Source: Candidatus Micrarchaeota archaeon
Lineage (GTDB): Archaea > B1Sed10-29 > JAJRYS01
Assembly: GCA_964496415.1 (NCBI GenBank)
Contig: CAZBZN010000032.1
Span: 1 to 5,200 of the forward strand
Direction: 5' to 3'
Length of the DNA: 5,200 nucleotides
In this document: piece after piece, positions 1,634 through 5,200 of the stretch
Layout of the letters: each line of letters opens with the position of its first letter
How positions within the stretch are numbered: the stretch's first letter is position 1
Translations under genes and position numbers: made by a program
Notes under the pieces: generated by a model
Databases searched by the model: none
What the model was told of the DNA's origin: nothing
Seen by the model: the letters and a program-made list of their open reading frames with translations, nothing else

Positions 1634-1673
1634 ACGCCGGCATGGCAGAGTGGCTTAATGCGCTGGCCTCGAG

Positions 1674-1709
1674 ATCCTTGATGACTGTGACAGGAAAAGG
1701 CCACGGGGA
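1674..1709 (+). other. Canonical 37/38 tRNA intron (36 nt) with BHB motif
   Basis: CTCG(1668-71) pairs with CGGG(1704-07). The 3-nt bulges are AG|A and GA|A. Confidence 0.88.
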
Positions 1710-1741
1710 AGCCAGTGCCCTTCGGGGCTCGCAGGTTCGAA

Positions 1742-1864
1742 TGGAAGGGCTGCGCCCTTTCCAAAGGCTTCAAAAAGCCTGCATTTACAGGACATTCGCT
1801 TCGCTCAACCCCTTAAAAGCAGCTGAGGCTGCTTTATACTACTCATGCAGCTCTTCCCAGAAAG
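1742..1864 (+). other. Non-canonical T-loop (59/60) tRNA intron, 123 nt, relaxed BHB/BHL
   Basis: TTC(1736-38) pairs with GAA(1860-62), with bulges AA|T and AG|T. An 11-bp closing stem GGAAGGGCTGC(1743-53)/GCAGCTCTTCC(1847-57) follows. The exact junction is uncertain by about 1 nt. Confidence 0.8.
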
Positions 1865-1944
1865 TCCTGCTGCCGGCGTCAGTCTTAAAAACAAGTTAAC
1901 CCATAAGAATAACTCACTGGTTTTAACTGGTTAAGTGATGCTTG

Positions 1945-2520
1945 ATGCCTTTTACTCAGATTGTAAGTGTGAAGAAAAACGAGAAAGCAGTGAAAGACTC
2001 TTTGAAAAAAGTTTCTACTGAAAAGTTGGTGTTCTTGCTTACTAGTGAAAACGCAGAGCATACAATAAAGTTGAGAAACAAACTTGCCTTGGAGTTAAGT
2101 GTTCCTACTGAAGTAAGGGCAGTTAATGGTTCTGGAGTAATAAACATTGTTACTTCTTACGAGAATCCTGTCATTCACTTAGCTGACCACTTAAGCATTA
2201 ATTATTTGCTTCTGTCAACTGCTTTCGTGACTGGAGTGCCTGTGCTTTATTTCAATAATGGCAAAGTTGAAAGTCTTCCTACTCCTTCAGCTCCTTTAAA
2301 GTCAATGCTTTCAGACACTCAAATAAGGATTCTTGAAGAACTTCTTGAGAGCCCTTTAAGCGTGAAAGAGCTTTGCATGAAACTGAAAATAACTGAAAGC
2401 ATGCTGTTCTCTCATCTTTATGGCACTGGAGTGTTCAAAGGACTTATTCGTTTAGGGCTTGTGAAGGATAATGACTTGATTGAGTTAACTGAGCTTGGAA
2501 GACTCGTAGCCCATTCCTGA
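1945..2520 (+). CDS. Putative transcriptional regulator: N-terminal Rossmann/CARF-like domain plus C-terminal wHTH (DUF6293/HFX_2341- or Csa3-like architecture)
   Basis: The C-terminal 'LSDTQIRILEEL..PLSVKEL...ITESMLFSHL...LIRLGLV...LTELGRL' is a typical wHTH. The N-terminus has a beta-alpha-beta pattern ('QIVSV...EKLVFLL'). The family assignment is inference. Confidence 0.65.
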   Translation: MPFTQIVSVKKNEKAVKDSLKKVSTEKLVFLLTSENAEHTIKLRNKLALELSVPTEVRAVNGSGVINIVTSYENPVIHLADHLSINYLLLSTAFVTGVPVLYFNNGKVESLPTPSAPLKSMLSDTQIRILEELLESPLSVKELCMKLKITESMLFSHLYGTGVFKGLIRLGLVKDNDLIELTELGRLVAHS

Positions 2521-2823
2521 TATCTGTTTTAGTGTTTGTTTTGCTATTTTTCGTATCTCCTTTATTCTTTCTTCATGAGGCTTTTTCAGTAATTCTATCA
2601 GTTGCTCTGGTTCTGCTGCTTCGTACTTTCTTGGCCTTCCAAGACTGCTTTTGACTATTCCCTTGTCCTGTAAGGCTTTTAAAGTAAAGTAAATTTTGCT
2701 TATTGGCACTCCGCTTTTGTTTGCTATTGCCTCTGCTGTTGATTCTCCTTTTAGAACTGCTTCTAATGCTAAAGCTTCATACTTACATAATCCTATCTTT
2801 TGAAAGTTTTCAGCAATACTCAT
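2485..2823 (-). CDS. TrmB-family winged-helix transcriptional regulator (DNA-binding domain only)
   Basis: 'GLCKYEA...TAEAIANKSGVPISKIYFTLKALQDKGIV...GRPRKYEAAEPE' matches the TrmB N-terminal domain. It overlaps the convergent gene by 36 nt. Confidence 0.88.
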   Translation of the reverse strand: MSIAENFQKIGLCKYEALALEAVLKGESTAEAIANKSGVPISKIYFTLKALQDKGIVKSSLGRPRKYEAAEPEQLIELLKKPHEERIKEIRKIAKQTLKQISGMGYESSKLS

Positions 2824-2862
2824 AGGTTTAGTTCTGATTAATTGTTTTTAAAAGAACAAAGT

Positions 2863-3207
2863 TTAACTTGTTAAACTGCTTAGTTTAATAAAACCAGGCA
2901 AGGTAGTTTGAGTGTTTTCAGAGTATTCTTTTTCAGCTTTTTCAACAAATTTCTTTAATGCAAAAACCCATTCAATGCTTAACTCGTATTCATTCTCAGG
3001 GTTTTTAACAACAACTCCTTCTTCTACTAGTTCCATTAAGGCTTTGTATACTCCTTGAAAAGTAATGTTTTTTCCAGCTCCTATTCTTAAACGATTATAA
3101 ACTTTTTTAGCTGTTATTGGGTGTTCTTGAAGAAGCAGGTGAACGATAAGGTCTTTTGTGCTCATAAACTCAATCTTATGGTTTGGCACGAACAAACCAA
3201 AACCCAT
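2863..3207 (-). CDS. Small winged-helix DNA-binding protein
   Basis: 'STKDLIVHLL..HPITAKKVY...ITFQGVYKALMELVEEGVVVK...YELSIEWV' is a wHTH pattern. The start is uncertain (3216, 3207 or 3165). Confidence 0.75.
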   Translation of the reverse strand: MGFGLFVPNHKIEFMSTKDLIVHLLLQEHPITAKKVYNRLRIGAGKNITFQGVYKALMELVEEGVVVKNPENEYELSIEWVFALKKFVEKAEKEYSENTQTTLPGFIKLSSLTS

Positions 3208-3332
3208 ACAAATCATTTTTTACTACTTTATGGTTACAATTTTTATCAAACTAATTTAAATAATTTACTGTTATGTTTAAACAATAGCAAATATGAGACT
3301 AATAAAAAAGCATAAAAAATCAAAAACTAAAA

Positions 3333-3482
3333 TCACTTAGTCTTCTTTTCTCCTTTCTTAGGACGAAGATAAGTAGACCCACATTTCCTGCACTTCTTAG
3401 CATTCCAAGGATTAACAGCCTTACATTTCCTACATACCTTCTTCTTAAGCCTTCTTTCCTTAGTCTCTTCAAAAATCACCAT
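3333..3482 (-). CDS. rpl40e: 50S ribosomal protein L40e
   Basis: MVIFEETKERRLKKKVCRKCKAVNPWNAKKCRKCGSTYLRPKK carries the CxxC-NP-CRKCG-LRPK signature. An SD-like AAGGAGAGG lies upstream of ATG3482. Confidence 0.95.
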   Translation of the reverse strand: MVIFEETKERRLKKKVCRKCKAVNPWNAKKCRKCGSTYLRPKKGEKKTK

Positions 3483-3555
3483 ACTAATCCTCTCCTTAAC
3501 TTGTTTGATTTTAAACATTCTAGTTTAAAAAGCTAACAGATAACAAAAATCTTAA

Positions 3556-3572
3556 GGAAAAACATTTATTAA
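3556..3572 (+). promoter_or_regulatory. Putative BRE/TATA promoter for tRNA-Glu
   Basis: GGAAAAAC followed by TTTATTAA, about 50 nt upstream of the tRNA 5' end in a divergent intergenic region. Confidence 0.45.
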
Positions 3573-3620
3573 AGAAGTAAGCAATAATAACACCACCATA
3601 ATTACTCTAATTACTACTTT

Positions 3621-3822
3621 GCTCCGATCTTCTAGTCCGGTCAAGGATACAGGCCTTTCAAAAGAGGGGTTGCACCCCTTCTAACCCTGCAGGCGGCGTT
3701 CGCTTATGCTCAGCCGCCTATTCAACCAAAGCAGGGAAAAAATGGGTTGCACCCGTTGTCTTTTATAAAAAAAGACTACTTGAAGAAAGCCTGTGACCCG
3801 GGTTCAAATCCCGGTCGGAGCA
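3621..3822 (+). tRNA. tRNA-Glu: tRNA-Glu(TTC) with a 127-nt intron; exons 3621-3660 and 3788-3822
   Basis: Acceptor GCTCCGA/TCGGAGC plus A3822, D-loop AGTCCGGTCA, anticodon stem CAGGC/GCCTG with TTC at 3657-59, T-arm CCGGG-TTCAAAT-CCCGG. Confidence 0.95.
3661..3787 (+). other. Canonical 37/38 tRNA intron, 127 nt, strict BHB
   Basis: CTTT(3655-58) pairs with GAAG(3782-85). Bulges are CA|A and AA|A, and the flanking stem is AAG(3662-64)/CTT(3779-81). Confidence 0.9.
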
Positions 3823-3878
3823 TAGGTCAACTGACCGGGAGGCAAACAAGGTTCGCCCGCAGGCCGGCGAGACGGCCT

Positions 3879-3900
3879 GTTCAGATCCCGGTCGGAGCAT
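3879..3900 (+). repeat. Direct repeat of the tRNA-Glu 3' end
   Basis: GTTCAGATCCCGGTCGGAGCAT versus GTTCAAATCCCGGTCGGAGCAT (3802-3823): 21/22 identical, offset 77 nt. Confidence 0.9.
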
Positions 3901-3930
3901 TAAAATTTTAAAACAGCAAAAGGTGATCAA

Positions 3931-4044
3931 TTGAAAAGCAAGCCAAGAAAATGGAAGAAAAAAGGAAGAATGAGATGGAAATGGCTTAAAAAAAGAATGA
4001 GAAGAGAAAAAAGGAAGAGAAGAAGAAGAGCTGGAAAGCTTTAA
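3931..4044 (+). CDS. rpl41e: Ribosomal protein L41e (eS32/aS32), long archaeal form
   Basis: TTG start after SD GGTGAT (3922-27). The product [37 protein letters not shown] carries the L41e motif MRWKWxKKRxRR. It is missing from the ORF track. Confidence 0.9.
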
Positions 4045-4080
4045 AGGTTTAAAATTCTTCTTTTAACAGTAGTGGTAGTA

Positions 4081-4917
4081 ATGATAGTAGTTACTGGAGG
4101 AACTGGTTTTGTTGGAAGAAGACTAATAAAAAGAATCCAAGGAGAATACAAAATCATAACAAGAAAACCAAGTGACAAAAACCATGAAAAGGCAGACATA
4201 AGACGCTATGAAGACGTTTTAAAAGCAACAAAAGACGCTGAAGTAATAATTCACCTTGCAGTTAACAGCAACCATTTTGGTTCTTTTAAAAACTCTTATG
4301 AAACAAACGTCATAGGAACAAAAAACCTGCTAAAAGCAGCTGAAAAAAACCAAGTGGAAAAATTCATCTACTTAAGCAGTGCTGCAGTAAACTCCCCTTA
4401 CAACACCAATTACACTCTTTCAAAAAAACTAGCAGAACAAGAAGTACTAAAACATCTTGAAACCATGAACATTTCAATCCTAAGACCATCGTTCATTTAT
4501 GATGAAAAAAGAATATCAGCAATGAAAAAAGCCTTCATGCTTCCTTTTCCTTTCAAAAAGCAAAAATTAAGACTCTGTTACATTGAAACAATCACAGACG
4601 CAATAATAAAAGCAGTGGAAAAAGGAAAAAACAAAATCTACGAAGTAGGCGACAAAAAAGAAATAACTTTAACAGAACTGAGAAAAGCAGTAACGAAAAA
4701 TCCTTTATGGGTTCCAGGATTTTTAATAGAAACCGCAGCAATAATGACCTCCCCAATAGAAATAATAACAAGCTTTACTGACTATAAGATACCAATAAGT
4801 TCATTTATCCTAAACAGCTTTACTGACAAAACCTTAAACGTAAGAGAATCAGCAAGAGAATTAAAATACAAACAATATGATACTATAAAACTCTTTAAAC
4901 AAGGGGCTGTAGTGTAG
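4081..4917 (+). CDS. NAD-dependent epimerase/dehydratase (extended SDR family)
   Basis: Motifs TGGTGFVG, 'IIHLA', 'NVIGTKNLL', 'YLSSAAV', YxxxK (YTLSK) and 'ILRP'. ATG4081 is preferred, with TTTAAA at 4048-53 about 28 nt upstream. The stop codon lies inside tRNA-Pro. Confidence 0.9.
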   Translation: MIVVTGGTGFVGRRLIKRIQGEYKIITRKPSDKNHEKADIRRYEDVLKATKDAEVIIHLAVNSNHFGSFKNSYETNVIGTKNLLKAAEKNQVEKFIYLSSAAVNSPYNTNYTLSKKLAEQEVLKHLETMNISILRPSFIYDEKRISAMKKAFMLPFPFKKQKLRLCYIETITDAIIKAVEKGKNKIYEVGDKKEITLTELRKAVTKNPLWVPGFLIETAAIMTSPIEIITSFTDYKIPISSFILNSFTDKTLNVRESARELKYKQYDTIKLFKQGAVV

Positions 4918-5185
4918 CCAGGACTATCACTCCGGCTTCGGGAAACACGTCTTCCATGCTGTAACTCTCGGCGGCCCCATCAGCCGCGTACGGCTGGCGG
5001 ACAGGTAGGTGGGTTTCCGCTGACGCTTCAACCCACCGCACTGTGGCAGTAAGCATCTCTTTTAAGGGGCCGTAGTGTAGCATGGTCTATCACCCAGGCT
5101 TGGGGTGCCTGTAACCCGAGTTCAAAAACATGAGAAGACGTGTTAAAAAAAGCCGGTAACCCCAGTTCAAATCTGGGCAGCCCCA
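4903..5185 (+). tRNA. tRNA-Pro: tRNA-Pro(CGG) with a 208-nt 37/38 intron (4943-5150); exons 4903-4942 and 5151-5185
   Basis: Acceptor GGGGCTG/CAGCCCC plus A5185, anticodon stem CCGGC(4932-36)/GCCGG(5152-56) with CGG at 4939-41, T-arm CCCAG-TTCAAAT-CTGGG. BHB geometry has bulges GG|A and AA|A, but only 2 of 4 central pairs form. The mature tRNA would be 75 nt. Confidence 0.92.
4966..5126 (+). tRNA. tRNA-Pro: Circularly permuted tRNA-Pro(GGG) nested in the tRNA-Pro(CGG) intron: 3' piece 4966-4979, 5' piece 5066-5126
   Basis: The 5' piece runs GGGGCCG...CAGGC-TTGGGGT-GCCTG-TAAC-CCGAG-TTCAAA (anticodon GGG at 5102-04). The upstream T-CTCGG-CGGCCCC-A completes the T-stem (CCGAG/CTCGG) and acceptor stem (GGGGCCG/CGGCCCC) perfectly. 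The mature tRNA would be 75 nt. Confidence 0.87.
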
Positions 5186-5200
5186 TACAGCTTCAAAAAG

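Follow-up and report, generated by a model that had tools for sequence, protein, structure and literature searches.

The repetitive extragenic palindromes of Enterobacteria and Pseudomonas, together with the bacterial interspersed mosaic elements that they form (REP/BIME), are short, GC-rich, imperfect palindromes present in tens of copies, which lie outside genes, gather in mosaic clusters with flipped units, and keep their stems through compensatory changes. The palindromic elements of Rickettsia, for which no transposase is known, are non-autonomous repeats of a reduced genome, inserted where they are tolerated, RNA genes included. Closer to tRNA biology are the transposed introns of Thermoproteales (Fujishima et al. 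2010, as described in the available part of PMC4090602), whose mechanism is unknown and supposed to act at the DNA level. Here we describe, starting from a 5,200-bp contig of a Micrarchaeota-like archaeal genome (the whole of contig C32 of genome G000; hereafter the window), a family of ~60-nucleotide (nt) two-hairpin cassettes that is tied to the discarded parts of tRNA genes: 3' trailers, introns, the linker of a permuted gene and, occasionally, a leader.

The Thermoproteales introns, as far as the available part of the source describes them, are the nearest known phenomenon. In both cases very similar introns occur in different tRNAs and at different positions, here in four tRNAs of the related genome G002 (80-91% identical), in three tRNAs of G004, and in the anticodon intron of the window's tRNA-Glu, where the 5' part (3657-3694) shares 87-92% identity with T-loop introns that belong to other tRNAs of G000 (contig C25) and G004. 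Unlike those introns, the cassettes lie mostly outside introns, in tandem 3' trailer arrays, in a permuted linker and flipped at tRNA 5' ends, and their host belongs to a Micrarchaeota-like lineage. They resemble REP/BIME in being short imperfect palindromes with many copies and mosaic clusters (34 copies, arrays of one to four, flipped units and covarying stems), and differ in that no RAYT (Y1) was found, in being bound to tRNA genes and even inside them, in their mostly uniform orientation and in their archaeal host. The Rickettsia elements are similar as non-autonomous palindromic repeats but sit in frame in protein genes, whereas the cassettes stay in what is discarded from pre-tRNAs, and the two are unrelated in sequence.

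Genome G000 comprises 687 kb (0.69 Mb) in 41 contigs, with 36% GC and an estimated completeness of 91%, and the runs that contain the window are labelled as hydrothermal-vent metagenomes. Contigs from two separate studies confirm the assembly: X1 spans 1771-5010 with two differences from the window, and X2 spans 3752-5188 with none. The tRNA genes of G000 form GC-rich islands, and many are interrupted; ARAGORN called no tRNA in the window with default settings and two of the four tRNA genes with its intron search switched on. The joined exons of the Ser, Glu and Pro(CGG) genes are called as tRNAs with the expected anticodons, so intron removal restores the cloverleaf in each. The genes and the cassettes that they hold are as follows.

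1636-1878, plus strand: tRNA-Ser(CGA) with two introns; exons joined by coordinates give tRNA-Ser(cga) in ARAGORN, and a paralogous 3' part lies on contig C2.
About 1673-1708, plus strand: intron in the anticodon region of tRNA-Ser, placed by joining the exons by coordinates.
1743-1865, plus strand: T-loop intron of tRNA-Ser, 123 nt, between tRNA positions 60 and 61; folds at -38.9 kcal/mol (z -2.35).
1764-1822, plus strand: cassette in the Ser T-loop intron, 52.5 bits with covariance model R1; hairpin 1 at 1765-1780, linker to 1791.
3621-3822, plus strand: tRNA-Glu(TTC) with a 127-nt intron (3661-3787) at the canonical position, called by ARAGORN.
3663-3719, plus strand: cassette-like core of the Glu intron, from its fold; hairpin 1 at 3663-3682, linker ending in CAGG, hairpin 2 at 3691-3719 with the motif 3699-3715 as its loop.
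4903-5185, plus strand: tRNA-Pro(CGG), exons 4903-4942 and 5151-5185, which join to a 75-nt tRNA-Pro(cgg).
4966-5126, plus strand: circularly permuted tRNA-Pro(GGG) inside the Pro(CGG) intron; 3' piece 4966-4979, linker 4980-5065, 5' piece 5066-5126.
4980-5045, plus strand: cassette in the permuted linker, 37.4 bits with R1 and 45.3 bits with R2, fold z -2.77; hairpin 1 at 4981-4996, linker to 5007, hairpin 2 at 5008-5037 with the motif at 5016-5033.

An earlier note on this DNA had drawn attention to a loop motif shared by the long inserts of three different tRNA genes. Its pattern matches on the plus strand exactly where the note placed it, at 1795-1810 (Ser), 3699-3715 (Glu) and 5016-5033 (Pro), and the motif forms the apex of hairpin 2 in the two-hairpin cassette. 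In the family as a whole, hairpin 1 has a stem of 5-6 bp and a 4-nt loop, and a linker of 9-13 nt, with (A/G)CAGG at its 3' end, separates it from hairpin 2. The outer stem of hairpin 2 varies among copies, and its top consists of TTC, an inner mini-hairpin of 2-7 bp and TCA; a short form, found on contigs C14 and C31, has a five-base loop and no mini-hairpin. Folding bore out the note's grading of the three stems: the Glu hairpin (3686-3724) folds at -16.4 kcal/mol (z -2.63) and the Pro stretch (4980-5045) at -31.2 kcal/mol (z -2.77), while the Ser stretch (1764-1822) reaches -11.6 kcal/mol (z -1.65), its hairpin 2 being decayed or broken. The whole Glu intron folds at -48.4 kcal/mol (z -4.83), and its core has the layout and the loop of a cassette though it is not scored by R1.

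Beyond the three sites, the note's pattern has a single further match in the 687-kb genome, in a paralogous Ser-type T-loop intron (C2:44754-44769), and no match in any of 30 first-order Markov (Markov-1) simulated genomes; this simulation is circular, the pattern having been derived from the same three sites. Support independent of that pattern comes from a looser core (TTC, GC, N3-4, GC, TCA), which occurs at 19 sites and clusters at tRNAs. Counted as overlapping matches it gives 35, against a simulation mean of 7.4 and a maximum of 17, and 16 of the 19 sites lie within a tRNA gene or no more than 138 nt from one. One more is at a contig end that a metagenome contig links to a tRNA-Leu trailer; the other two, distant from tRNAs, appear to be chance occurrences.

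The observation that the loop is conserved on stems of unrelated sequence also holds, and the stems covary. Wholly different outer stems carry the same loop among the main stem types of G000, the Glu and Pro copies, and G002. In a model-based alignment of 49 matches, 90.9% of cells are paired, and double-change cells number 95 against 33 in shuffles, with none of 500 shuffles reaching the observed value and slid-partner controls collapsing. The hairpins are thus maintained. The antisense strands fold as well as the sense strands (summed energies -730.9 and -701.4 kcal/mol, respectively, with the sense strand ahead in 13 of 32), and the numbers of G.U pairs are similar (33 versus 35), so the hairpins could be selected as RNA or as DNA. 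Strand folding, tried as a discriminator between selection on RNA and on DNA, showed no asymmetry and thus cannot separate the two; a DNA-level palindrome is plausible. Other readings of the structure failed on inspection by eye: hairpin 2 has no tandem G.A pairs and a symmetric internal loop, and hairpin 1 is too small, and H/ACA, kink-turn (K-turn) and bulge-helix-bulge readings of hairpin 2 were rejected on these grounds. The idea that the hairpin 2 stems are copied T-arms was dropped as well, since only two of six stem types (Pro and Glu) coincide with a T-stem of this genome, which an informal comparison judged consistent with chance. A promoter or terminator reading likewise found neither a T-run of at least 5 nor, in the type-B linker ATTTAC, anything beyond a weak TATA look-alike.

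A census with R1, a covariance model built from 27 copies (alignment A1), recovered 34 distinct cassettes in G000 at E<=0.006, plus one antisense echo. Most of them (22/34) form same-strand arrays of one to four units behind tRNA 3' ends, the trailer cassettes beginning 1-4 nt past the discriminator base. Three are within tRNA genes (the Ser T-loop intron, the paralogue of this intron and the permuted tRNA-Pro linker), four are flipped and abut tRNA 5' ends, and five lie within 117 nt of a contig end. The last group indicates that the repeats break the assembly, and two metagenome contigs bridge contig breaks at cassettes. The association proposed in the earlier note therefore has to be widened: the motif is not a feature of tRNA introns, most copies being in 3' trailers, but the family is tied to the discarded parts of tRNA genes at large.

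Within these parts the cassettes have been copied and shuffled. When the window was searched with BLAST against G000 itself, the surroundings of the Ser and Pro motifs were found again on many contigs, almost always immediately behind tRNA genes. Near-identical copies stand at different tRNAs, the trailers of tRNA-Ile, tRNA-Val, tRNA-Pro(TGG) and tRNA-Pro(CGG) sharing their starting sequence, loops and stems are combined in mosaics among copies, and some units are flipped. There has also been recent exchange of copies between trailers and introns: over its first 37 nt the Ser cassette is 97% identical to the cassette in the trailer of tRNA-Leu(TAG) (C30:216-252), with 82% identity over the full cassette. 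The Pro cassette, which is 76% identical to a trailer cassette at C5:33857-33919, directly follows the 3' end of tRNA-Pro(GGG), the same placement as behind ordinary tRNA 3' ends.

Cassettes scored in G000 and in three of 30 other genomes of the phylum (31 examined), and in none of 10 more distant archaea. In G002, from another genus of the same family, the cassette is the core of a T-loop intron of ~110 nt in the four tRNAs mentioned above. In G007, from another family, cassettes occupy the trailers of two tRNA-Gln genes, and in G022, from another order, a cassette fills the anticodon-loop intron of tRNA-Ser(GCT). The family is therefore not confined to one species. The orthologous tRNA-Leu(CAG) genes differ in where the cassette lies, which is the trailer in G000 and a T-loop intron in G002, and the start of a G002 T-loop intron resembles the start of a G000 trailer. 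The orthologous Ser(CGA) genes of G003 and G007 lack the T-loop intron, and in the Glu(TTC) orthologues the exon matches are separated by only about 33 nt (G002) and 43 nt (G003), a stretch in which the motif is absent. The cassette-containing introns are therefore lineage-specific gains, and the earlier expectation that the motif might be kept in orthologous introns failed at both loci.

A pattern scan of metagenome contigs returned 118 stretches, mainly a conserved bacterial gene or chance matches; the true cassette matches (L202, L210, L282, L283 and L291) are 99.4-100% identical to G000 contigs, and at L232 and L271 the sequence at the match site equals the two tRNA-Gln trailer cassettes of G007. 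A pattern of hairpin 1 plus linker was too unspecific as a probe of distribution: it gave 120 stretches on genome contigs, and those listed were all from GC-rich bacteria. In G007 itself, GC-rich hairpin units are stacked behind three tRNAs, two of them tRNA-Gln (L022 and L025) and one without assigned identity (L042). Among these units are one hairpin with a UUCG cap and another of 5 bp with a 6-nt loop; there is partial tandem duplication, and the only part in common with G000 is hairpin 1 with the linker.

We consider it somewhat more probable than not that the cassettes are palindromic elements of a non-autonomous kind: they would spread through recombination or duplication at the DNA level, last only in places from which tRNA processing removes them, and thereby seed or enlarge introns and linkers. 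The copying would be carried out by host recombination, duplication or gene conversion, or by an enzyme supplied in trans. Each cassette would fold on itself and be excised during processing, whether by RNase Z, by RNase P or by the splicing endonuclease, and self-folding and removal together would leave the tRNA undisturbed and allow the cassette to persist. RNase P RNA and RNase Z are both present in G000, and with them trailers, leaders and the permuted linker can be removed by ordinary end processing. In the window, cassettes may have supplied the material for the T-loop intron of tRNA-Ser, for the enlarged intron of tRNA-Glu and for the linker of Pro(GGG). Of the three guesses offered by the earlier note, the remnant of a tRNA-targeting mobile element fits best; a protein-binding or tertiary RNA motif gained nothing from the strand comparison, in which RNA was not favored.

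Several observations weigh against this explanation. Orientation is strongly biased, with 30 of 34 cassettes on the strand of the tRNA, and no polymorphism for cassette presence or absence was seen in the two metagenomes that contain the window; no such variant was seen among the contigs of four metagenome runs, in which the joints at the Glu intron belong to tRNA-Glu genes of other organisms. The genome, 91% complete, gave no match to the Y1 transposase domain PF01797 at E<=1 (the control was positive in 10 of 14 genomes), none to the tyrosine recombinase domain PF00589 at E<=0.01, Xer-type enzymes included, only three sub-threshold zinc-ribbon matches (16.6-22.8 bits) to the TnpB domain PF07282, and no reverse transcriptase. 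The covariation counts are inflated by the relatedness of the copies and by an alignment fitted to the model. Finally, conservation across genera extends to the single-stranded linker and to the TTC and TCA ends of the loop; neither is needed by a pure DNA palindrome, and both would be in keeping with a role as RNA or in protein binding.

The last of these points also speaks for the main rival, which we regard as unlikely: a cis-acting RNA module of the pre-tRNA, either a T-loop-like protein-binding hairpin or a rigid scaffold, that would aid the folding, end processing or splicing of GC-rich pre-tRNAs by an endonuclease of broad specificity. Such a module would account for a conserved loop on covarying stems, for the (A/G)CAGG linker and TTC/TCA ends shared by G000, G002, G007 and G022, for the prevalence of the tRNA's strand (intronic copies are all sense), and for loop ends that by eye resemble a T-loop. 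It sits poorly with the patchiness of the cassettes, since by eye only ~14 of 36 tRNA hits in G000 have one directly behind the 3' end and orthologous tRNAs of sister genera do without, with a number of copies per tRNA that varies from 1 to 4, and with the broken hairpin 2 of the Ser copy; the antisense strand folds equally well, moreover, and flipped copies exist. Chance likeness among three GC-rich inserts, suggested by a short, degenerate pattern that was written after its sites had been seen, is highly improbable: two of the three sites score in the 34-copy family, with E-values of 4e-11 and 3e-7, and the concentration of the looser core at tRNA genes refutes it.

Two further readings take their cue from the position of the cassettes. 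It is improbable, in our estimate, that they are tRNA-linked small RNA genes, each product being set free from a trailer by RNase Z, or cut from an intron by the splicing endonuclease and then circularized; the earlier note had suggested a family of small circular RNAs encoded in introns. A start 1-4 nt past the discriminator base means that an RNase Z cut would create the 5' end, the enzyme is present, and there is precedent in the dicistrons of tRNA and C/D small RNA (sRNA) of Nanoarchaeum equitans, where, in the available part of PMC3491384, a structured sRNA gene lies right behind a tRNA and the sRNAs are argued to be mobile. The cassettes share that placement, but unlike those sRNAs they lack C/D boxes and guide complementarity. 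The C box (RUGAUGA) is found in 0 of 34, CTGA in seven and both in none; Rfam 15, searched with the whole window at E<=1, returned only a tRNA (5066-5185, 39.4 bits) and a sub-threshold SNORD14 in a coding region, leaving the cassette unmatched; the three loops (k>=12) and the linkers find no complement in the genome other than the opposite strands of the cassettes themselves, bar one stray 12-mer; and what varies among copies is the stems, not single-stranded guide regions. Slightly less probable still are integrase scars, that is, leftover att-flanking arms of viruses or plasmids in tRNA genes, stacked by repeated integration and decay and possibly mobilized in trans. tRNA 3' ends are the classic archaeal integration site (in the available parts of PMC3293823 and PMC4090602), and repeats of a tRNA tail flank a 61-nt insert behind tRNA-Glu in the window and, by eye, inserts of 60-180 nt in G002, G004 and G007. 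Yet neither a tyrosine recombinase in G000 nor a real match in viral contigs was found (no type-A match, and one type-B match by chance in GC-rich coding DNA), tail repeats are rare in G000 although cassettes are common, and the repeated tail differs for each tRNA, so its source was the target and not a single travelling element. The Caldiarchaeum model resembles the present case in tying intron gain and the scattering of tRNA fragments to the insertion of mobile DNA at a tRNA gene (PMC3293823, available part), but its element measures 1.8 kb and encodes a recombinase, against ~60 nt and no recombinase found here. An origin as miniature elements derived from IS200/IS605 finds equally little in G000, with no PF01797 and PF07282 only below threshold.

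Returning to non-autonomous elements that spread at the DNA level, we can outline more tentatively a route by which they might make introns. The arrangements that bear on it, and the remaining features of the window's 3' part, are the following.

3824-3900, plus strand: 61-nt hairpin-rich insert (3824-3884) followed by a 16-nt tail repeat (3885-3900), by direct reading of the sequence.
4943-5150, plus strand: intron of tRNA-Pro(CGG), 208 nt, canonical position, also called by ARAGORN.
4944-5144, plus strand: long-range helix, 4944-4954 with 5134-5144 (11 bp) and 4955-4958 with 5129-5132 (4 bp), from complementarity read in the sequence.
5186-5200, plus strand: first part of the cassette array that follows tRNA-Pro(CGG), truncated where the contig ends and recognized from metagenome contig L291.

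The repeat behind tRNA-Glu is an exact copy of the last 16 nt of the tRNA region (3808-3823), starting in the T-loop, and the insert before it consists of a hairpin, a linker ending in ACAAG and a second hairpin. Among 37 tRNA loci of G000, for some of which the end coordinates are approximate, it is the only such repeat, and a general pairing of tail duplications with cassettes in this genome was therefore rejected. By eye, and among the loci listed, tail repeats flank 60-180-nt inserts at five of 12 loci in G002, one of five plus one more in G004 and three of 13 in G007 (L034, L037, L040, L049 and L061; L035 and L337; L033, L050 and L056, respectively). In these the last 13-16 nt of the tRNA, from the T-loop on, recur 60-180 nt downstream, sometimes with the first bases of the flank. 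Since either tail would give the same mature tRNA, such loci look intermediate between a trailer and a T-loop intron.

In the route that these loci suggest, a cassette would land behind a tRNA 3' end; the tRNA's final ~15 nt (from T-loop position 59/60) would be duplicated past it, giving two usable tails, which may be the state seen after the window's tRNA-Glu and at several tRNAs of G002, G004 and G007; and loss of the first tail would turn the trailer into a T-loop intron. The tRNA-Leu(CAG) pair, with its trailer cassette in G000 and T-loop intron in G002, and the start shared by the G002 intron and the G000 trailer are in line with such a route. That the cassettes are the vehicle for the gain of tRNA introns and permuted genes in these archaea is nevertheless a possibility that we rate as doubtful.

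The permuted gene has its own counterparts. Circularly permuted tRNA genes are described from Cyanidioschyzon merolae and Thermofilum pendens (available parts of PMC4090602 and PMC3218864), and tRNA-Pro(GGG) resembles them in having its 3' piece upstream of its 5' piece, a break in the T-arm, flanks that can pair and a linker removable by RNase P and RNase Z. It differs from what those sources describe in being nested in the canonical intron of tRNA-Pro(CGG) and in having a repeat cassette in its linker; we found no description of a permuted tRNA nested in the intron of another tRNA in the literature searched. The break is at T-loop position 59/60, and joining 5066-5126 to 4966-4979 yields a 75-nt tRNA-Pro(ggg) cloverleaf with perfect acceptor and T stems. 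The alternative given by Rfam, a tRNA at 5066-5185, leaves an acceptor mismatch. No other Pro(GGG) gene was called in G000.

As judged from complementarity, a 15-bp helix would bring together the splice sites of Pro(CGG) at one of its ends and the T-loop break of Pro(GGG) at its opposite end. Terminal helices lie next to splice junctions in both Pro (11 plus 4 bp) and Ser, where the ends of the T-loop intron pair over 11 bp (1743-1753 with 1847-1857); in a possible bulge-helix-bulge at the Pro(CGG) splice sites, the central 4-bp helix has only two clean pairs by eye. Contig L291 is 100% identical to 4917-5200 and continues beyond the window with at least three further hairpin units.

Some smaller observations were made along the way. 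The anticodon-region intron of tRNA-Ser contains a C-box-like TGATGA at 1679-1684, with no clear D box. In G002, the inserts before the repeated tail at L037, L049, L061 and L335 include a terminal hairpin between UGAUGC and CUGA, which by eye could be a box C/D-like kink-turn arrangement. In a second repeat family, a purine-rich stretch precedes a hairpin of 9 bp with a loop of 3 nt, and the copies show compensatory changes relative to one another; its members lie within cassette arrays, directly before tRNA-Glu(CTC) and in a tail-repeat insert of G004 (C27:8150-8273, C27:2690-2735 and C30:276-310; L337 in G004). Downstream of the Glu tail repeat, an open reading frame of 37 codons (3931-4044, plus strand) encodes an extremely basic peptide, the last 24 residues of which appear to resemble ribosomal protein eL41.

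The origin of archaeal tRNA introns is an open question: in its available part, a 2014 review gives the mechanism of transposition as unknown (PMC4090602), and a 2026 census of Asgard archaea, in the part available, did not find a general route by which introns are gained (bioRxiv 10.64898/2026.10.13.758758). Cassettes bound to tRNAs in DPANN archaea were not described in the literature searched, which took in few subscription journals. In practical terms, most interrupted tRNA genes of the kind found here escape standard tRNA finders. A single cassette family is present in every discarded compartment of tRNA genes, from trailers through T-loop and anticodon introns to a permuted linker, and because some near-identical copies span these compartments while the introns are absent in sister genera, the direction and the steps of intron gain become testable within one lineage. 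The cassettes thereby give a traceable example of how tRNA introns may arise; if they are indeed the vehicle of intron gain, theirs would be the first traceable donor-to-intron route for the tRNA introns of archaea.

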